A stretch of DNA of 64,000 bases from Bacteroidota bacterium. GTDB lineage: Bacteria > Bacteroidota > Bacteroidia > NS11-12g > UBA9320. Position numbers and translations under genes: made by a program. Where the stretch lies: NCBI GenBank assembly GCA_002746305.1, contig NVWV01000008.1, positions 125,353-189,352 of the forward strand, written 5' to 3'. This document shows, piece by piece, positions 6,552 through 14,939 of this stretch (within the stretch, counting starts at the first letter, position 1; each line of letters starts with the position of its first letter). A model generated the notes under the pieces. The model was not told the origin of the DNA and made no database searches. It worked only from the letters and a program-made list of their open reading frames with translations.

Positions 6552-6615
6552 GTCTCAATTGCACACAAGTCTACATTTCATTGGCAACTTTTTGTGAGCA
6601 TTGAAACTAAAATAA

Positions 6616-7719
6616 ATGACAAGAAAAGAGTTTATCAAAATCTGTGGAATTCTGGGAGTGGCCATTCCCATTCAACTTCCGTTAATATCTTGTTCTGATG
6701 ATGATAAAATTCAACAATCATTTAAAGGAAAAGTACTTATAATAGGTGCTGGTGCCGGAGGATTATCTGCAGGATACTTATTACAACAGCAAGGTATTGA
6801 ATATGAAATTTTGGAAGCATCAGCCATTCATGGAGGCAGAATGAAGATAAATACTGATTTCGCTGACTTCCCTATTCCTTTAGGAGCTGAATGGTTGGAA
6901 ACGGATACAACTATCTTTTCAGAAATCGTGAATAATGCCTCCGTACAAGTCAACATAGAAACTGTGGCCGATGACCCAGATCGAAAATTCGTAAATTCTT
7001 CTTGGTACTCTTTCTTTGAGGAATACATCGTTCCATCGGTGGCCAACCATATTTCTTACAACACCATTGTACAATCTATTGACTACTCAAATGATCAAGT
7101 CGTTGTGACCACGCAAAACGGAGAGCATCTAGCCGATAGAGTGATTGTTTCCGTTCCACTTAAAATCCTTCAAGATGGAGATATTAATTTCACACCGAGC
7201 CTACCACAGAGCAAGATAGATGCTATCAACGGCACAACTATTTGGGAAGGATTTAAAGCCTTTTTTGAATTTTCAACTAAATTCTATAATGATGAGCACG
7301 AGTTCCCAATTACTCCGGCTACTGATGGGGAGAAGATTTATTACAATGCCACTCTTGGCCAAAATACTGCCAAACATATTCTTGGATTGTTCGTTGTAGG
7401 GAAACCAGCTCTTGACTACATCTCACTCTCTGATAATGATTTGAAAGACTTTATTCTAAACGAGCTTGATGGTATTTATTCTAACCAAGCAACCCCAAAT
7501 TATGTTAAACACATTTCACAAAATTGGAATAACGAACCATTTATTAAATCTGGTTACATGACAGACAATGCCGACTGGAAAACAGTTAGAGAACTCGGCA
7601 CACCTGTTGCCAATAAAATACATTTTGCAGGAGGAGCTTACACCGACGGAGAAGACTGGGTTTCAGTACATACTGCAGCACAGTCAGCAAAAAAAGCAGT
7701 TGAAGAATTAAGCAATTAA
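6616..7719 (+). CDS. flavin-containing amine oxidase family oxidoreductase (lipoprotein/Tat-like leader)
   Basis: GxGxxG dinucleotide fold VLIIGAGAGGLSAGYLL. C-terminal HFAGGAYTDGEDWVSVHTAAQSA is typical of amine oxidases. N-terminal leader with LISCS. Confidence 0.55.
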   Translation: MTRKEFIKICGILGVAIPIQLPLISCSDDDKIQQSFKGKVLIIGAGAGGLSAGYLLQQQGIEYEILEASAIHGGRMKINTDFADFPIPLGAEWLETDTTIFSEIVNNASVQVNIETVADDPDRKFVNSSWYSFFEEYIVPSVANHISYNTIVQSIDYSNDQVVVTTQNGEHLADRVIVSVPLKILQDGDINFTPSLPQSKIDAINGTTIWEGFKAFFEFSTKFYNDEHEFPITPATDGEKIYYNATLGQNTAKHILGLFVVGKPALDYISLSDNDLKDFILNELDGIYSNQATPNYVKHISQNWNNEPFIKSGYMTDNADWKTVRELGTPVANKIHFAGGAYTDGEDWVSVHTAAQSAKKAVEELSN

Positions 7720-7847
7720 ACATCGGGTTACGGTAAGATACAAAGACCTTGGATCTCTATCATCCAAGAAAAATAGTACCTTTCGCTAGATAAAACTTAA
7801 GCTGAAATGCAATATCACACCACTACTCTTAGACAAAACATATACGT

Positions 7848-8627
7848 ATGAATCAAACTTCTCTAGCCCTATTTCTTGCAATACTGATATTCTCAGGATG
7901 CGATAAAAAAGAAACAGATGACTTAACACAACAGGTTACTTATGAAGTGAATGAAGATGGTGACTATCCTGACTTTCTAACGCCTCATTATTACAATATA
8001 AATGCGACTGACCTGAGAAACGACATTAACAAATTGGTCCATTTTGCTCGACTTAACGATTACAATCATCCATTTGAAAATGAGAATGACGAAATAGCCG
8101 CTCACTCAACCAAAAGAGAGTTTGGAGTTGGTATTGGAATGAGCGATACATCTCAGCATCATCCAGCAATAGACCTACATCCTACCAATCCAACTAACAT
8201 TGTTATGTATGCGGCTCATAATGGGTTAATAAAAACCTATAGAGATAGTCCAAAATACAGACACTACCTGAGCCTAACCAGTGAGATAAAAGATACCGAT
8301 AATAATATCATTGGTAAAATAGTTACGATCTATGCCCATATTGATTTGGATTTGGACAATAGCGAATCCTTGCAATTGGATGGTCAATACATCAATAAAG
8401 GAGAGGTCATATCAAAAAATTTATACTCTGGAACTATGGGTGGAGCACACTTACATTTTGAGACCAGAATCTACAGAAACTCAGAAACTGGGAATGAAGA
8501 TTTTTACTATTGGCAAAATAGTGAAAATCACACAACTCGGTCTTCTGGTGTTTGGTCCTATGGATATTGGACTAATGATCTAGGATATGGTTTTATGGAC
8601 CCGGTAAACCTTGGGATTGGATTGTAA
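7848..8627 (+). CDS. M23 (LytM) family metallopeptidase lipoprotein
   Basis: Lipobox FSGC. HxxxD (HPAIDLH) and HxH (GGAHLHFE) zinc-ligand motifs. Confidence 0.5.
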   Translation: MNQTSLALFLAILIFSGCDKKETDDLTQQVTYEVNEDGDYPDFLTPHYYNINATDLRNDINKLVHFARLNDYNHPFENENDEIAAHSTKREFGVGIGMSDTSQHHPAIDLHPTNPTNIVMYAAHNGLIKTYRDSPKYRHYLSLTSEIKDTDNNIIGKIVTIYAHIDLDLDNSESLQLDGQYINKGEVISKNLYSGTMGGAHLHFETRIYRNSETGNEDFYYWQNSENHTTRSSGVWSYGYWTNDLGYGFMDPVNLGIGL

Positions 8628-8820
8628 TCCCTGAAGAGTATTCATTTACCAATTATTCCAGATTGAGGTGCAAAATCCTTAAACTTGACAACAGGGTAAA
8701 ATTAAAAAATAAGATGTTTCGACTTTTACGAATCTCCTATTGAGCAACGAGTGTTAAACCATACAATACATTCAAGCACTCAACGTTTCATAGGTTAAGT
8801 GCTAGTAAGCAATGTAAAGA

Positions 8821-9249
8821 GTGAAAAAACTTAAGCAAATATGTCAGGTGGGAGTTGTACTTATCATCTCCGGAGTTTGTTTGTACCAATTTGATTTTAT
8901 CAAACGCGGTATAGCCTCCCAAAATCACAGGATTGATTTACCCAACTATCTAAATCACATCTCGATAAAAGAACCCAAATCAGTATTTATTTTCGGAGCT
9001 TTTAGTAACTCTATCACACATGGTCGATTAGCTTCTGATAGGTTAAAAGATTTTTATCGTGATATAAACGGGGAACAGATAGTAATAGAGGGCAAATCAA
9101 CGGGAGATATTTCCAAAAATCTGGATTTAGTTTCTAGTACTTTTTCAATTATTTTCAGGGATAATGCCAATCAGTTGAACGGAATAACCATGAAATATTC
9201 CGAGGACAACAAAACATATTTACTGAAAATTAAAAGTTCAAGAGAATAG
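8821..9249 (+). CDS. hypothetical protein with N-terminal TM anchor
   Basis: ORF only. No recognised motif. Confidence 0.3.
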   Translation: MKKLKQICQVGVVLIISGVCLYQFDFIKRGIASQNHRIDLPNYLNHISIKEPKSVFIFGAFSNSITHGRLASDRLKDFYRDINGEQIVIEGKSTGDISKNLDLVSSTFSIIFRDNANQLNGITMKYSEDNKTYLLKIKSSRE

Positions 9250-9521
9250 CAAAGAGTGCAATTTTGATAATTTAAACGAGGGATTCAGGCCCATTGGATT
9301 AAATAACCCTATGCAATATTCATTTATGGTATATAATCATTGGGGTGAAAAACATTTGAGTCTGGACAAAGTGGAGAAGCCTGGAATCGCATATACCTTA
9401 AATTGTATATCTCATACGAGACATACTATTAATAGAAGAGGAACTGTTACATTACTTAGGTAAGACTATCTAGTTATTGATTCTATTAAAATCCTCGATT
9501 ACATTACTTAAGACAACCGGA

Positions 9522-9938
9522 TCATACATCCATCAAATGTTCTTTTTCAAGTTTTTCTCGGAGGGATTTTAACAAAACGTCTCTATCATCTCTTGCTTGA
9601 GCCAAGAAGATATCATCGGCTCCAGTTTCACTGTCATGTTCCCCACTCCAAGAAATCATATCTACCATGAAAGGAAGCATTTTAATCCCCTTTTTGGTAA
9701 GGCTATATTTAATTCGTGATTTTTTAACAGTATCCTGTCCTTTACTGATTATTCCAGATTCCTCCAGTTGTTTTAATCGATCTCCTAAGACACTTGTCGA
9801 GACTTTTTCTCCGGATTCAAAAAACTCATTGTAATGCCTTTTCTCCATGAACATTAAGTCCCTTATTACTAATAAAGACCACTTATCTCCGAAGTGCTCT
9901 AAAGCATAATTTATAGGACAATGTGATCGCATTTTCAT
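9522..9938 (-). CDS. HxlR-family winged-helix transcriptional regulator
   Basis: CPINYALEHFGDKWSLLVIRDL...RHYNEF...ISKGQDTVKKSRIKYSLTKKG is the HxlR/MarR-like signature. Confidence 0.65.
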   Translation of the reverse strand: MKMRSHCPINYALEHFGDKWSLLVIRDLMFMEKRHYNEFFESGEKVSTSVLGDRLKQLEESGIISKGQDTVKKSRIKYSLTKKGIKMLPFMVDMISWSGEHDSETGADDIFLAQARDDRDVLLKSLREKLEKEHLMDV

Positions 9939-9960
9939 TTTTCAAAGGTAGTAAATAGTT

Positions 9961-10060
9961 CTCTTTTAACTTCGAAATTAAAAGTTAATTGTTCAGTTAA
10001 CTTGCTTTTTCCAAGTTAATATTTAGTTTTGCTTCGAAATAACAAGTTAAATTAACAATC
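9961..10060. promoter_or_regulatory. divergent promoter/operator region with aagttaa half-sites (probable HxlR operator)
   Basis: Perfect palindrome aagttaa-N8-ttaactt at 9982-10003. A ~21-nt direct repeat cttcgaaatt/aa(a/c)aagttaa(t/a)tt occurs at 9970-9990 and 10033-10054. Confidence 0.4.
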
Positions 10061-10492: not shown

Positions 10493-11086
10493 ATGAAAAT
10501 GAAATACATACTAACTATAGTACTAGCACTTGCTATCACTACTTCAGCTTTGGCCCAAAAACAAAACATGGAAAACACAGAGAATTATATTGGCCCACAA
10601 TTAGGTAAAATCCAAGGTAAAGAATCAATAGTAATAAATGCATCACAAGAAATTGTGTGGGAAGCCATTTTCAATTCTAGTGTTCTCGAAAAATGGTCCC
10701 CTCCTACAGATAGCGTTGAAGTATTTCTTCAAGAAGGACAAATACAAGAGGGAGTCGGAACAAGAAGAAAAATCTACGCTAAATTTGGCAAAAGGAATGG
10801 TAGTTTTATGGAACACCGTATTGCACAAGAAGATGGAAGGAGTATTTCATTTATGATTGACAGTGACGAAGGTTTGGGAGTCACAAAAATTTTGAAATAC
10901 CCAGGAGCAAGTATGGCAATTACAAAGGTTGATGGTGAACAAACCACAGTTGAATTTATATTTTATCATAAAACCAAAGGGTTTATGGGATGGTTATTAA
11001 ATCCAATGATAAAATCCCAACAAAAAAAACAACGTCATGGAGCACTACTTTCATTAAAAAAATATTGCGAGTCAAAATTGGATTAG
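10493..11086 (+). CDS. secreted SRPBCC-like protein
   Basis: Start re-set to MKMKYIL (signal peptide ...ALAQ) because the longer ORF overlaps the upstream gene. Fold guess is weak. Confidence 0.35.
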   Translation: MKMKYILTIVLALAITTSALAQKQNMENTENYIGPQLGKIQGKESIVINASQEIVWEAIFNSSVLEKWSPPTDSVEVFLQEGQIQEGVGTRRKIYAKFGKRNGSFMEHRIAQEDGRSISFMIDSDEGLGVTKILKYPGASMAITKVDGEQTTVEFIFYHKTKGFMGWLLNPMIKSQQKKQRHGALLSLKKYCESKLD

Positions 11087-11189
11087 AAATCAAGACAAAC
11101 TAAAATACGCATTTTATCGTATTAAGTATATTTGTATAGCAGCCGCTTAAATGAGTAAGTGGCGATGTCGTTTGTATACCCTATTGAAA

Positions 11190-11906
11190 ATGAGATACAC
11201 AATCACCATACTATTTTTCTTATTCTGTTGGAGTTCCTTTGCCCAGCACTTATACTTAAAATGTGGGGATGTAAAAATTCGATGCTACAACGGCAACATG
11301 GATCATTTTAGCATGATTGTTCATACTCCTTATACTGAGGCGGATACAAATGAAATTCCAAAAGAAATTCGTGTCAAAAATAAAAATTACTTACTGGAAC
11401 GAGTAGGTGAGAATTTCAAATGCAAATTGAATTATTACAGTTGTCAAATCATTGATTTCAAGAACTATAAAAATATAAAAAGTGAAAGAGGGTTTACTCG
11501 TAAAGACCTCTCTGACAAACGAGCAAAGTATGCATTTCAATACTACTTTGAAGTCCAAGACAGTATGCGGTATTATCTCTCAATAGTTTATGACAAGGAG
11601 GGCAATGTAATATCTGACCACCAATTGCCTAAGGTACAAAAAAATGGGTCTTTTGACAGTATAATCACAGTCTGCCAAGCAAAACAAATTGCGGAAGACA
11701 ACAAAAAATACCAAGGAAAACTGGAAGGTATTTCATTAGAATACTCAAGCAAACACAATTCCTTCGTTTGGGAGGTAAAAAAAACAAGAATCGTCAAGGG
11801 AAAAGATGTAACGATACCATTTGTACTTGTTTGTGCACAAACTGGCAGAGTAATAGGCCATAGGATAGAACTAGGCCGCATTGTTTGTATACTCCCAGAT
11901 TTTTGA
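11190..11906 (+). CDS. hypothetical secreted Cys-containing protein
   Basis: Start re-set to MRYTITILFFLFCWSSFAQ signal peptide. No recognised domain. Confidence 0.3.
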   Translation: MRYTITILFFLFCWSSFAQHLYLKCGDVKIRCYNGNMDHFSMIVHTPYTEADTNEIPKEIRVKNKNYLLERVGENFKCKLNYYSCQIIDFKNYKNIKSERGFTRKDLSDKRAKYAFQYYFEVQDSMRYYLSIVYDKEGNVISDHQLPKVQKNGSFDSIITVCQAKQIAEDNKKYQGKLEGISLEYSSKHNSFVWEVKKTRIVKGKDVTIPFVLVCAQTGRVIGHRIELGRIVCILPDF

Positions 11907-12029
11907 CCAATTTGAGGAATAAAAGCAGAGTCTCAATAGTATTCTTAATTGTAAAAAATCATTTTGAGTAAATTCTAAAATCCGTATTTAAGCATTTGCT
12001 AAAACACGCAAGAAAGCTAGATTTGTAGT

Positions 12030-12404
12030 ATGTTAAATAACTCATGCATTCGACAACAAGCAGATATTACACAAATAAACCGTTGCAAAGAGACTGTCTC
12101 TACATTAAATGACACTTTTGATTATTTAACAAATGGGCTTTCACTCGTGGGAAACAACGTTAGATTGAAAATACTGTACCTCATCTTTGAAGAAAGGAGA
12201 CTTTGTGTTTGTGATTTAAGCGACATTCTTGGAATGAACATTTCCGCTGTCTCTCAACATTTGAGAAAAATGAAGGATAGAAACCTAATAGAAACTGAAA
12301 GGGAAGCACAAACCGTTTTTCACTCATTAACCCCTGAATATGAGCAATTACTAAATCCTTTTTTTAAGATTCTCGACAATAATAAAATTCTGGAAGTACT
12401 ATGA
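12030..12404 (+). CDS. ArsR/SmtB-family metalloregulator
   Basis: LKILYLIFEERRLCVCDLSDILGMNISAVSQHLRKMKDRNLI is an ArsR HTH with a CVC metal site in the alpha3 position. Confidence 0.6.
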   Translation: MLNNSCIRQQADITQINRCKETVSTLNDTFDYLTNGLSLVGNNVRLKILYLIFEERRLCVCDLSDILGMNISAVSQHLRKMKDRNLIETEREAQTVFHSLTPEYEQLLNPFFKILDNNKILEVL

Positions 12405-12994
12405 AGACTGAAAAAAAATTAATCGGAGCAGGTTTATTGACTGCAGCTGCAGCTTCGCTATGTTGTATAACACCTGTTATAGCACTGATAGCAGGAACAA
12501 GCGGCATTGCCTCAACGTTCTCTTGGCTTGAACCGTTCAGACCTTACTTAATCGGATTGACTATTTTGGTTCTTGGTTTTGCTTGGTATCAAAAATTAAA
12601 GCCAAAAAAAGAAATAGACTGCGATTGTGATACTGATGAAAAGCCGAAATTCATTCAATCAAAAATATTTTTAGGCTTTATAACCGTGTTCGCACTTGTT
12701 ATGTTGGCTTTTCCATACTATTCAAAAACATTCTATCCAAACACTGAAAACCAAACTAGGATAGTTGATGACTCAAACATTTCAACCATAGTATTTAAAA
12801 TAAGTGGAATGACCTGTACCAGTTGCGAACAACATGTGAATCACGAAGTTAATAAACTGAGTGGTATTGTAAGTTCAAAAGCATCCTATGAAATGGGAAA
12901 TGTGATTGTAGAATTAGACCGAACAAAGACCAGTATAACTGACATTAAGAAAGCAATTAACTCAACAGGATACACGGTAACTGACACCAAATAA
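12401..12994 (+). CDS. MerT-MerP fusion (mercuric/heavy-metal transport protein with C-terminal HMA domain)
   Basis: N-terminal AASLCCITPVIALIAG...LEPFRPYLIGLTILVLGFAWYQ parallels MerT (CC pair in TM1, LEPYRP). C-terminal GMTCTSCEQHVNHEV is an HMA (MerP-like) motif. ATGA-type overlap with ArsR. Confidence 0.6.
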   Translation: MKTEKKLIGAGLLTAAAASLCCITPVIALIAGTSGIASTFSWLEPFRPYLIGLTILVLGFAWYQKLKPKKEIDCDCDTDEKPKFIQSKIFLGFITVFALVMLAFPYYSKTFYPNTENQTRIVDDSNISTIVFKISGMTCTSCEQHVNHEVNKLSGIVSSKASYEMGNVIVELDRTKTSITDIKKAINSTGYTVTDTK

Positions 12995-12999
12995 GACTT

Positions 13000-13206
13000 A
13001 TGAAAATAACATTAAAGTCGGAAATTACTTGCCCTTCTTGCAAACATAAAAAAGTAGAAGAGATGCCTACAAATGCCTGTCAATTCTTTTACGAATGTGA
13101 CAACTGTAAAATAATTTTTAAACCAAAAGAGGGAGATTGTTGTGTCTATTGTTCTTATGGAACTGTTCCTTGTCCACCTATTCAAGAAAATAAAAATTGT
13201 TGCTAA
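13000..13206 (+). CDS. small cytoplasmic Cys-rich protein with GDCCVxCSYG motif (13 Cys in 68 aa)
   Basis: CPSC...CDNC...GDCCVYCSYGTVPC...NCC. I recall a GDCCVxC family named for mer contexts but cannot verify it. Confidence 0.45.
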   Translation: MKITLKSEITCPSCKHKKVEEMPTNACQFFYECDNCKIIFKPKEGDCCVYCSYGTVPCPPIQENKNCC

Positions 13207-13345
13207 ATGAATACTAAAACCAAAGATATAGCATGTCTTTAACCGCTTTTTATTGTTGGTGCTAATTCGAAAGAATAAAAATTGTCACACTCTCATTTAA
13301 ATTTTGTCTAAAGGGTATATAACAACTTTATAAACTCATAAAAAG

Positions 13346-13729
13346 ATGAAAAAAGCAACAACACAGACCATTAGTATTAACGCTGAATACCAAAAGGTAT
13401 TCAACTACATCTCAAATCCTTTAACTCAAAAGGAATGGGCAATTAACTTTATGAAAGACGTAAAAGAAACGGATAATGGATTTATAGCCATAACACCATT
13501 TGGAGAAATGCCATTAGAACTTAGGGCCAATGAACAAACAGGAACTATCGACATCATTCTAGGTGATGGCAAACCAATTCCAACTCGACTCATTAAAAAC
13601 CAAAATGGATGTGAATATATTTTTACATTGTTTCAACCCACAGGAATGCCTGACACTGCCTGGGAACGAGAAGGAATTCCTGGTTTAACGGAAGAATTAA
13701 AAGAACTTAAATCAATACTTGAACAATAA
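13346..13729 (+). CDS. hypothetical protein (SRPBCC-like guess)
   Basis: 127-aa ORF. No strong motif. Confidence 0.3.
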   Translation: MKKATTQTISINAEYQKVFNYISNPLTQKEWAINFMKDVKETDNGFIAITPFGEMPLELRANEQTGTIDIILGDGKPIPTRLIKNQNGCEYIFTLFQPTGMPDTAWEREGIPGLTEELKELKSILEQ

Positions 13730-13735
13730 ATAAAT

Positions 13736-14140
13736 ATGAAACAGTTCAGTTTAAGTTTAGGGCTTGGTTTTCTAGTCAACAATATTGTTGCAACAATGCT
13801 TGCAATGTTTGTTCTAAACCCGCTATTAAACCCAATGTTTGAGGGAATGATTCGAAAACAAGAAGAGGGGTTGGAAATGCCATCATTACTAAGCGGATAT
13901 TTTTTACTTACACTGTTTATGGTAATTGGTTACAGGCATTTTTCTTTAGATGCAAAATGGCTAAAAAAAGGCATAATTTGGGGTCTATTGGTTGGAGGAA
14001 TTGCTTTTATTGCAGGGCACTTAATTGTAGCTGGTTGGTCAAGCATGCCTCCGTTACCAATGCTAATTTCTGGAGTAATAGATACAGTAGCAACTTTGGC
14101 AACCGGAATACTTATTGCGTATTTTCATCGAAATGAATGA
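13736..14140 (+). CDS. hypothetical integral membrane protein (4 TM)
   Basis: Hydrophobic helices. Stop overlaps the sigma gene start (ATGAATGA). Confidence 0.4.
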   Translation: MKQFSLSLGLGFLVNNIVATMLAMFVLNPLLNPMFEGMIRKQEEGLEMPSLLSGYFLLTLFMVIGYRHFSLDAKWLKKGIIWGLLVGGIAFIAGHLIVAGWSSMPPLPMLISGVIDTVATLATGILIAYFHRNE

Positions 14141-14939
14141 TTTAGAAATAGTAGTAAAAAAGGCTGTAGAAGGAGATAAAAAAGCACTTGAAGAAGTTGT
14201 TCTTCAAATTCAAGACTTCATATATAACTTAGCAATCAGGATGCTGTGGCATCCTGATGATGCTAAAGACGCTACACAAGACATATTGATAAAGGTAATT
14301 ACTAATTTGAGCAAGTTCAACAATAAAAGTGCCTTCACTACCTGGGTTTACAGATTGTCTTCAAACAACCTAATTAACTTTAAAAAGAAAAAAAATACAG
14401 GCTCATTGAACTTTGATCAATATGAACTCCAATTAAATCAAGGCTTCTCCAACACAATAGAATATACAACCAACAAAGCAGAGCAGAGTTTATTAATTCA
14501 AGAAGCAAAAATTGGATGTTCCAATGCCATGCTACAATGTCTGAACAAAGAAAGTCGCATAACATATATCATAGGTGAAATACTAGAATTCAATGGTTAT
14601 GAAGGAGGAATAATACTAAATATTACACCCGAAAATTTTAGAAAAAAACTCTCACGGGCTCGGAAGAGTTTGCACAATTTTTTAAATAAAAATTGTGGAA
14701 TAGTCAATAAGCAAAATACATGCAGGTGTCACAAAAAAGTAGATGGTTCTATAAAAAATGGATTCATTCAACCCACTAATTTACTTTTTACAAAGAATAT
14801 AAAAGATGACAATCTTATTAATACAATTGAAAGTATTAGCCATGAAGTAAATTTATACCAAACAAACCCAAACTATACAGCTCCTGATATTTTCTTAAGT
14901 GAAGTTAGAAGAATCGTAACTACCGCCAAAAATGTATAA
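14133..14939 (+). CDS. ECF-type sigma-70 family factor with ~80-aa C-terminal extension containing CxxxxxxxxCRCH
   Basis: Region 2 (DATQDILIKVITNLSKF...FTTWVYRLSSNNLINF). Region 4 (FRKKLSRARKSLHNFL). Extension NKNCGIVNKQNTCRCHKK... Start set at ATG 14133. Confidence 0.5.
   Translation: MNDLEIVVKKAVEGDKKALEEVVLQIQDFIYNLAIRMLWHPDDAKDATQDILIKVITNLSKFNNKSAFTTWVYRLSSNNLINFKKKKNTGSLNFDQYELQLNQGFSNTIEYTTNKAEQSLLIQEAKIGCSNAMLQCLNKESRITYIIGEILEFNGYEGGIILNITPENFRKKLSRARKSLHNFLNKNCGIVNKQNTCRCHKKVDGSIKNGFIQPTNLLFTKNIKDDNLINTIESISHEVNLYQTNPNYTAPDIFLSEVRRIVTTAKNV

Follow-up and report, generated by a model that had tools for sequence, protein, structure and literature searches.

A cassette of three genes, encoding a regulator of the ArsR/SmtB family, a Mer-type transporter (MerTP) and a small cysteine-rich protein carrying a GDCCVxC domain, lies within a 64,000-nucleotide stretch of DNA from a marine member of the Bacteroidota (metagenome-assembled genome, MAG, GCA_002746305.1; GTDB lineage Bacteria; Bacteroidota; Bacteroidia; NS11-12g; UBA9320; contig NVWV01000008.1, positions 125,353 to 189,352, forward strand), the whole of which is referred to here as the window. 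The cassette spans 1.22 kb (11985-13206), is conserved as a discrete unit in many other genomes and stands in the window without a mercuric reductase gene (merA). Existing database annotation calls its three products a transcriptional regulator, a heavy metal transporter and a hypothetical protein, and is no more specific than that. A first-pass annotation, made from the sequence alone, had proposed three open reading frames (ORFs) at this locus, all of which were found where it had placed them (Table 1).

Table 1. Features of the cassette and its control region, in window positions
Feature	Position	Strand	Size	Description
Putative operator	11985-12006	+	22 bp	Imperfect palindrome TATTTAAGCA-TT-TGCTAAAACA (10-2-10), 8 of 10 arm positions complementary; full sequence TATTTAAGCATTTGCTAAAACA; left edge of the cassette
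TTTG, Bacteroidetes-type -33 element	11995-11998	+		Within the operator; conserved in related palindromes
TAGATTTG, Bacteroidetes-type -7 element (TAnnTTTG)	12018-12025	+		19 nt past the -33 TTTG; ends 4 nt before the ATG
ArsR/SmtB metalloregulator, CadC-like (ORF1)	12030-12404	+	124 aa	Four invariant cysteines (C6, C19, C59, C61); family matches in text
MerTP fusion (ORF2)	12401-12994	+	197 aa	MerT-type three-helix importer with C-terminal HMA/MerP domain; NF033556
GDCCVxC-domain protein (ORF3)	13000-13206	+	68 aa	11 Cys; zinc-ribbon-like N-terminal half; GDCCVYCSYG in C-terminal half; ends in CC

Organization and control of the cassette

ORF1 and ORF2 share 4 nt (ATGA), and a gap of 5 nt separates ORF2 from ORF3. 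The translational coupling of regulator and transporter claimed at first pass is borne out by this overlap, which recurs as a junction of -4 nt in 32 of 44 related loci; the junction between MerTP and the GDCCVxC gene measures -1, +5 or -4 nt in 55 of 65 related loci, with an overall span of -4 to +6 nt. In a blastn comparison of window positions 11000-14500, DNA homology to more than 20 related loci opened at 11984/5 and closed at 13206/7, with related cassettes 72-79% identical in nucleotides to the window copy and no similarity to those loci in the flanks. The GC content is level across the region. Ratios of nonsynonymous to synonymous substitution (dN/dS, Nei-Gojobori), computed against 11 related loci, were 0.04-0.07 for the regulator, 0.05-0.15 for MerTP and 0.07-0.14 for the GDCCVxC protein, synonymous sites being close to saturated. 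Purifying selection acts on all three genes, and the cassette forms a discrete unit that includes a control region.

The control region was analyzed by aligning the 110 nt upstream of the regulator start across related loci; this comparison replaced a sigma-70 promoter and terminator scan, which is uninformative for a Bacteroidota genome. The Bacteroidetes promoter consensus consists of TTTG at -33 and TAnnTTTG at -7. A palindrome of consensus TATTTAAGTATTTGCTTAAATA, with 8-10 of 10 arm positions matching, precedes the regulator gene in 38 of 38 distinct related regions. Four matches to the operator at up to 3 mismatches occur in the window, and only the one listed in Table 1 precedes a regulator gene. 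A TAnnTTT[G/A] box follows the internal TTTG by 19-20 nt in 33 of the 38 upstream regions and ends 3-5 nt short of the ATG in 24 regions. Because the palindrome contains the -33 TTTG, it would act as a repressor site superimposed on the promoter, and the arrangement is that of ArsR/SmtB control, a putative imperfect inverted-repeat operator overlapping the gene's own promoter. The closeness of the box to the ATG implies in turn that the cassette mRNA is probably leaderless or nearly so, given the transcription start predicted from the same elements.

The regulator matched Pfam HTH_5 (54.6 bits, cut-off 22) and NCBIfam NF033788 (71.5 bits, cut-off 55) and contains the sequence LCVCD, in agreement with its first-pass description as an ArsR/SmtB protein with a CVC site. 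Its closest solved structure is Staphylococcus aureus CadC (1U2W; E 4.4e-10, 43 bits over query residues 13-105), and C59 and C61 of the LCVCD motif align with the CVC of CadC helix alpha-3. These two residues, C6 and C19 are invariant among 36 distinct orthologues, so that the protein has both parts of an alpha-3N (CadC)-type thiolate site, a CxC in helix alpha-3 and N-terminal cysteines. CadC senses Cd, Pb and Zn. The four-cysteine site of the window regulator is thiolate-rich and suited to soft metals in general, and does not itself indicate which metal is bound; ArsR-type regulators of other mer operons are known to respond to Hg (PMC3466566).

The transporter matched the NCBIfam equivalog NF033556, 'mercuric transport protein MerTP', at 299.4 bits (cut-off 180), its residues 10-194 covering profile positions 1-186 of 186, and it also matched Pfam MerT (58.1 bits) and Pfam HMA (53.3 bits, residues 131-192), so the MerT-MerP/HMA fusion recognized at first pass is correct. 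Hydropathy and charge distribution were computed for MerTP and for the GDCCVxC protein. A vicinal pair, C21-C22, lies within the first hydrophobic segment (residues 12-30, TM1), a Lys-rich loop (residues 65-88, seven Lys/Arg) holds C74 and C76, and the third hydrophobic segment (residues 89-107) comes before the HMA domain, whose motif GMTCTSC starts at residue 136 and contributes C139 and C142. The full-length family match, the two MerT cysteine pairs and the HMA GMTCxxC motif are thus all present. In MerT the loop is cytoplasmic, and MerP acts in the periplasm; by homology, the loop of MerTP would be cytoplasmic and the fused HMA domain periplasmic. MerT-type proteins carry metal inward, and inward transport of Hg(II) would be expected of MerTP.

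The GDCCVxC protein

The third product belongs to the NCBIfam family NF041374, 'GDCCVxC domain-containing (seleno)protein', with a score of 103 bits (cut-off 40) and residues 7-63 aligned to profile positions 1-57 of 58. The first-pass annotation had described a protein of 68 aa with the motif GDCCVYCSYG and 13 cysteines, and had suggested a GDCCVxC family whose name it could not verify. The family exists as a curated entry, and the length and the motif (GDCCVYC at residues 45-51) stand; the cysteine count was wrong and is corrected in Table 1. No Pfam family matched the protein, and hydropathy revealed no signal peptide and no membrane or hydrophobic segment. C11, C14, C27, C33, C36, C47, C48, C51 and C58 make up the full conserved set, every one of them kept in at least 99% of 150 diverse cluster representatives, and the CC near the C-terminus is shared by 55% of these representatives and is therefore not universal. 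An AlphaFold2 model (pLDDT 78) matched the generic zinc-ribbon fold only. Metallothioneins are Cys-rich, low-complexity proteins practically without aromatic residues; identity as a metallothionein was considered and rejected on the lack of any Pfam family match, the presence of three Phe and three Tyr, and the zinc-ribbon-like model.

The profile matched 2,900 clusters at E values up to 1e-3 in a search of 1.84 billion cluster representatives, and a pattern scan in which each species was represented by one genome gave at least 586 GDCCVxC stretches confirmed as relatives, those listed being mostly from Bacteroidota with some from Proteobacteria and Ignavibacteriota. By tblastn the domain was found on 355 plasmid records. 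A literature search under 'GDCCVxC' returned no paper.

Metagenome contigs were scanned for GD-C-TGA-V-[FY]-C-S-[FY]-G, which gave 15 loci (L110-L124), and in at least six distinct sequences among them the motif resumes in frame past the TGA (for example L111 1751-2038, L112 33-269 and L114 2887-3339). These are probably GDCU variants with selenocysteine at the position of C48, the second cysteine of GDCC. Folding of the RNA downstream of the in-frame TGA in search of a SECIS-like hairpin (selenocysteine insertion sequence) gave no separation of selenocysteine from cysteine variants. In L110 a divergent merR is followed by merT, merP and the GDCU gene, and L114 combines merF with GDCU.

Gene fusions link the domain with Mer-type transporters. 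GDCCVxC is fused to the C-terminus of MerC in proteins matching Pfam MerC at 45 and 42 bits, above cut-off, and at three genomic loci too; other C-terminal fusions involve two-helix MerT/MerF-like proteins, a leaderless HMA domain and a PAS-GGDEF protein. The even helix count of the transporter partners places the fused GDCCVxC domain in the cytoplasm. In such fusions the domain would form the terminus of the thiol relay that MerTP likewise supplies in the window. The PAS-GGDEF fusion, a metagenomic protein of 793 aa (P0305), is a PAS-PAS-PAS-GGDEF diguanylate cyclase ending in a GDCCVxC domain, and its architecture suggests that cyclic di-GMP signalling, too, can take a metal or redox input through the domain.

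Genomic contexts and reductase genes

The genomic context of the domain was examined in 86 related loci, a sample dominated by Bacteroidota. The gene immediately before GDCCVxC encodes MerTP in 61 of 82 loci and in at least four others among the 86, and the gene set of the cassette recurs in more than 60 species-level genomes of several phyla. Two contexts dominate: the order ArsR-MerTP-GDCCVxC found in the window (45 loci), and the order CzcA-CzcB-Fur-like-MerTP-GDCCVxC-ZntA-like P1B ATPase (about 18 loci). Both often adjoin genes of integrative and conjugative elements (ICEs) such as RteC and MobC, homologues of which were not found by phmmer in the six-frame translation of the 64 kb window, unlike in many relatives. 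The pairing of MerTP or MerT with GDCCVxC persists under three regulators, ArsR, Fur-like and, in Proteobacteria, MerR. A third, widely spread island places the ArsR cassette beside CsoR, thioredoxin, a second MerT/HMA fusion and a CopA-like ATPase; MerT-HMA fusions thus occur in an apparent copper module as well.

The Czc islands (L001-L006, L011, L025, L027, L030, L032, L037, L039) belong to Tenacibaculum and other Flavobacteriaceae. They carry a divergent Fur-family gene in place of ArsR, and the P1B ATPase that directly follows GDCCVxC is of the ZntA/Cd type, about 650 aa long and without an N-terminal HMA domain by Pfam. The apparent copper module, seen in L087-L094 at about 6553-9832 (for example in Zunongwangia profunda CP001650), comprises a CsoR-like repressor, thioredoxin_3, the second, divergent MerT/HMA fusion, the CopA-like ATPase and a small HMA protein.

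In Proteobacteria the unit consists of a MerR-family regulator, MerT (with or without MerP) or MerF, and then GDCCVxC, in an operon without merA. It is carried by plasmids of Agrobacterium, Methylobacterium, Xanthomonas, Alteromonas and Sphingobium and by Tn5563, and merA was found in the operon in none of eight distinct plasmid contexts; Sphingobium has a separate, complete merRTPA operon alongside the MerR-type GDCCVxC unit. On two further plasmids GDCCVxC has other neighbors. On Cupriavidus necator H16 pHG1 (L096 3523-5222) it follows, in place of a Mer-type transporter gene, DUF1326 and DUF2182 genes, whose products are a possible further membrane partner of the domain. On Emticicia oligotrophica pEMTOL01 (L109 3136-5207) a thioredoxin-family gene precedes a fusion protein of 471 aa that joins two glutaredoxin/NrdH-like domains to thioredoxin reductase (Grx-Grx-TrxR), and GDCCVxC begins 7 nt downstream, with no Mer-type transporter nearby.

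The absence of merA from the window, as claimed at first pass, was confirmed with phmmer, as two MerA-like flavoproteins from related loci, searched against all 64 kb translated in six frames, gave no match; the MerA that marks a canonical mer operon is therefore missing here. None of the six largest MerA-sized ORFs in the window is a class I pyridine nucleotide-disulfide oxidoreductase by Pfam: three encode an LRR/T9SS protein, a TPR protein and a PSP1 protein, and the other three have no Pfam match or a weak, unrelated one. A smaller flavoprotein ORF (6616-7719) encodes an amine oxidase. MerB was not found among the Pfam-scanned ORFs (those flanking the cassette and the largest of the window), no search having been aimed at merB itself. 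Homologues of P1B ATPases, Fur and CzcB were likewise not found in the window by phmmer.

In the related loci, neither a canonical MerA nor a flavoprotein with a C-terminal CC occurs within 10 kb in any of the 86, and only six have an adjacent class I flavoprotein. In five of these (L015, L017, L019, L045, L084) a 448-aa protein is encoded within the same cassette, between MerTP and GDCCVxC, and in L070 (Ignavibacteriota) a 457-aa flavoprotein occupies the same place. MerA is recognized by a CxxxxC motif, two active-site tyrosines and a C-terminal cysteine pair (PMC3466566). The 448-aa protein is glutathione-reductase-like, with CALRGC as its CxxxxC and a Tyr at the C-proximal MerA active-site position, where glutathione reductase has His; compared with plasmid MerA it lacks the second Tyr and stops 15 residues before the C-terminal CC. 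It falls below every NCBIfam cut-off, scoring 285.9 against 454.45 for TIGR02053 (MerA), and no source names it MerA. That it is a hidden MerA was rejected on this score and on the missing Tyr and CC. A further locus, L067, retains a 119-nt remnant (9882-10000, about the last 40 codons) of the 3' end of the flavoprotein gene between MerTP and GDCCVxC, from which it follows that at least one reductase-less cassette arose through loss of a reductase gene. These minority contexts, with that of the Emticicia plasmid, keep alive a redox or hand-off role for GDCCVxC.

Outside the cassette, a DUF1761-like membrane protein ORF (13736-14140) extends 26 nt into the TTG-initiated ORF of an ECF-type (extracytoplasmic function) sigma factor (14115-14939; 274 aa), which bears a CRCH motif in a C-terminal extension of about 80 residues and has no obvious anti-sigma gene. 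This pair is not kept beside the cassette in other genomes. Scans of the whole window (1-64000) for tRNA genes and, at the gathering threshold, for Rfam families gave no match.

Interpretation and comparison with known systems

We favor, with confidence a little better than even, the reading of the locus as a self-contained cassette, induced by metal, that imports and captures a thiophilic metal, most probably Hg(II), and is without a reductase by design. In the absence of metal, a CadC-like ArsR/SmtB dimer would bind the 22-bp palindrome over the -33 element and repress the three co-translated genes, as its position and family suggest. By homology with CadC, metal binding to the four invariant cysteines (the two N-terminal residues and the two of the alpha-3 CVC) would free the repressor from the DNA. 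Metal would then pass, as in MerP and MerT, from the periplasmic HMA domain of MerTP to the Cys-Cys pair in TM1 and on to the CxC of the cytoplasmic loop, and the GDCCVxC protein would accept it at the cytoplasmic face on its invariant cysteines, the GDCC pair being the predicted key site. From there the metal might be stably sequestered or handed off to unlinked reductases, thiol systems or P1B efflux pumps. The partnership of MerTP with GDCCVxC is shown by conserved adjacency, translational coupling and gene fusions. Hg(II) appears the most probable substrate because of the Mer-type partners of the domain and the bona fide Hg(II)-MerR of Tn5563, which passes the TIGR02051 cut-off; GDCU variants, too, occur in MerR/MerT/MerP and MerF contexts. 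Cd, Pb, Zn or Cu may be handled instead, in view of the CadC-like sensor and of the Zn/Cd/Pb and Cu efflux neighbors seen elsewhere. Of the two readings offered at first pass, the uptake and sequestration module is the one that the evidence favors, its sequestration step being inferred.

Several points weigh against this reading. The metal binding, transport and phenotype of the cassette are deduced from sequence, and classically MerT and MerP expressed without MerA render cells hypersensitive to Hg. A sink of 68 aa, made in roughly equimolar amounts with the importer, would have limited capacity. The nearest solved relative of the sensor is CadC, and elsewhere the pair lies within Zn/Cd/Pb (Czc, ZntA-like) and Cu (CsoR-CopA) islands. 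GDCCVxC adjoins flavoprotein disulfide reductases in a minority of loci; such neighbors, and the apparent replacement of one Cys of the vicinal pair by selenocysteine, would fit a redox or hand-off function as well as a sink. The scope of the merA search in this genome is the 64 kb window.

The alternatives are, from the likeliest downward, a carrier for a flavoprotein reductase, a chaperone for other soft metals, a decayed operon and a nutritional uptake system. GDCCVxC could serve a flavoprotein disulfide reductase as its mobile Hg(II) or redox carrier, comparable to the C-terminal Cys-Cys tail of MerA or to NmerA, with the reductase unlinked or housekeeping in this organism; we regard this as improbable, although it leads the alternatives. 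It would account for the 448-aa flavoprotein inside five cassettes, with its CxxxxC, its MerA-like Tyr and its end 15 residues short of the CC, for the CC ending of the window protein and about half of the representatives, for the flavoprotein gene remnant in L067 and for the gene order on the Emticicia plasmid. The vicinal Cys-Sec pair also recalls the GCUG tail of mammalian thioredoxin reductase. Such a carrier is difficult to reconcile, however, with the rarity of adjacent class I flavoproteins, the absence of such a gene from the window, the non-universal CC of GDCCVxC and the failure of the 448-aa protein to qualify as MerA by score, residues or name. A narrower form of the proposal, to which we give a slim chance, is that GDCCVxC proteins are trans-acting Hg(II)/redox shuttles that replace NmerA and the Cys-Cys tail, carrying metal on the vicinal Cys-Cys or Cys-Sec pair from the importer (MerT, MerC or MerF type) to tail-less flavoprotein reductases, which would be the neighboring 448-aa enzyme in some genomes and unlinked or housekeeping ones in genomes of the present type. 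It is also doubtful, and next in rank after the carrier, that the pair handles Cd, Pb, Zn or Cu, with GDCCVxC as a chaperone feeding P1B efflux ATPases and the name 'Mer' misleading. The Czc islands, where the ZntA/Cd-type ATPase lacks its own N-terminal HMA domain, the CsoR-CopA-like island beside the ArsR cassette and the CadC-like sensor all agree with it. The cassette is nevertheless conserved although homologues of P1B ATPases, Czc and Fur are missing from the window, import of a metal merely for re-export would be futile, the fusion partners of GDCCVxC are MerC, MerT and MerF-type proteins, and the Tn5563 regulator scores above the Hg(II)-MerR equivalog cut-off.

Decay of a standard mer operon that has lost merA, leaving a 'defective mer locus', is very improbable. 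The analogous merR-merT-merP of Tn5563 has been termed defective or partial (PMC4785139, PMC4133298), and the reductase gene has been deleted in one related locus. Against decay stand the low dN/dS of all three genes at near-saturated synonymous sites, the intact frames with overlapping junctions, the conserved promoter and operator, the breadth of genomes and phyla that share the gene set, and a MerTP-GDCCVxC gap so short (5 nt) that it leaves no room for a remnant here. The conservation data largely refute it. The other first-pass reading, a mer operon split from its reductase, is not supported for this locus in view of the sharp-edged recurrence of the cassette, purifying selection, the proteobacterial counterpart, which also lacks merA, and the lack of a canonical MerA within 10 kb in the 86 loci. 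Least likely of all, and barely credible, is nutritional uptake of an essential metal that GDCCVxC would store: MerT-type proteins do import metal and some genomes have a Fur-family gene ahead of the pair, but ArsR/SmtB and MerR sensors induce at metal excess, the opposite of uptake logic, and the genomic company of the pair is one of resistance islands, ICEs, plasmids and transposons.

In the textbook account of mercury resistance, MerA reduces the metal once it has been imported, and transporter loci that lack MerA are usually written off as broken. The reductase-less version described here always has a conserved Cys-rich partner, GDCCVxC, in a discrete mobile cassette, and its reach extends over the species-representative stretches and plasmid records counted above, including clinical IncP-6 and IncP-2 plasmids. 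MerTP and GDCCVxC both belong to curated NCBIfam families, the cassette is common, and the window adds one more copy, from a marine Bacteroidota MAG. What is not in the literature searched is the treatment of reductase-less mer loci as a module of their own with a dedicated, conserved GDCCVxC partner. If GDCCVxC makes Mer-type import safe in the absence of reduction, or feeds an unrecognized reductase, surveys that count merA would underestimate microbial mercury handling, and the cassette would offer bioremediation a natural module of import and capture, ready for use. If GDCCVxC is a shuttle, a widespread 'split' mercuric reductase pathway would exist and 'defective' loci such as that of Tn5563 would be complete.

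Among known systems, CadC of S. aureus plasmid pI258 shares with the window regulator the alpha-3 L-C-V-C-D and the presence of N-terminal cysteines. The match is modest, and CadC controls the efflux pump CadA, whereas the window regulator precedes an importer and a Cys-rich protein; the N-terminal cysteines of CadC, C7 and C11, are also spaced otherwise than C6 and C19. Within the Bacteroidetes, the mer operon of Tenacibaculum discolor 9A5, from which the name MerTP originates, reportedly combines an ArsR/SmtB-type Hg-responsive regulator with a MerT-MerP fusion (Allen et al. 2013). It is also said to encode a mercuric reductase and an extra MerP, both absent from the window, and to confer Hg resistance. 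Our literature search on Bacteroidetes mer operons turned up general reviews only. With the canonical mer operons of Tn21 and Tn501 the cassette shares the MerP-to-MerT thiol relay, metal-responsive control and, in its relatives, mobile contexts (PMC3466566); those operons have MerA and MerR, whereas the window cassette has an ArsR-family regulator, no MerA and the additional GDCCVxC gene.

A close likeness among mobile elements is Tn5563, common on clinical Pseudomonas IncP-6 and IncP-2 plasmids, which on p10265-KPC and pTTS12 combines a regulator, a Mer-type importer and a periplasmic HMA protein in an operon without merA. Its GDCCVxC gene begins 7 nt after merP (L097 4995-5207 in p10265-KPC, L098 5995-6207 in pTTS12) and encodes a protein 58% identical to that of the window, with 105.6 bits on NF041374. 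It differs in having a true MerR activator/repressor (TIGR02051, 178.8 bits, cut-off 150.85) instead of ArsR, separate MerT and MerP proteins and a Tn3-family transposon as carrier. Published descriptions of the Tn5563 mer locus give merR, merT and merP only, as 'defective' or 'part of this operon', and leave the small GDCCVxC ORF unmentioned (PMC4785139, PMC4133298, PMC9537497). Functionally, a parallel is provided by engineered Escherichia coli strains carrying MerT/MerP and a metallothionein, which accumulate Hg (Chen and Wilson 1997 and later work; review PMC6215804). They too join a Mer importer to a cytoplasmic Cys-rich sink without a reductase, and because they work, import into such a sink can work. 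The sink in those strains is a metallothionein, which GDCCVxC, with its aromatic residues, predicted zinc-ribbon-like fold and lack of a Pfam match, is not.

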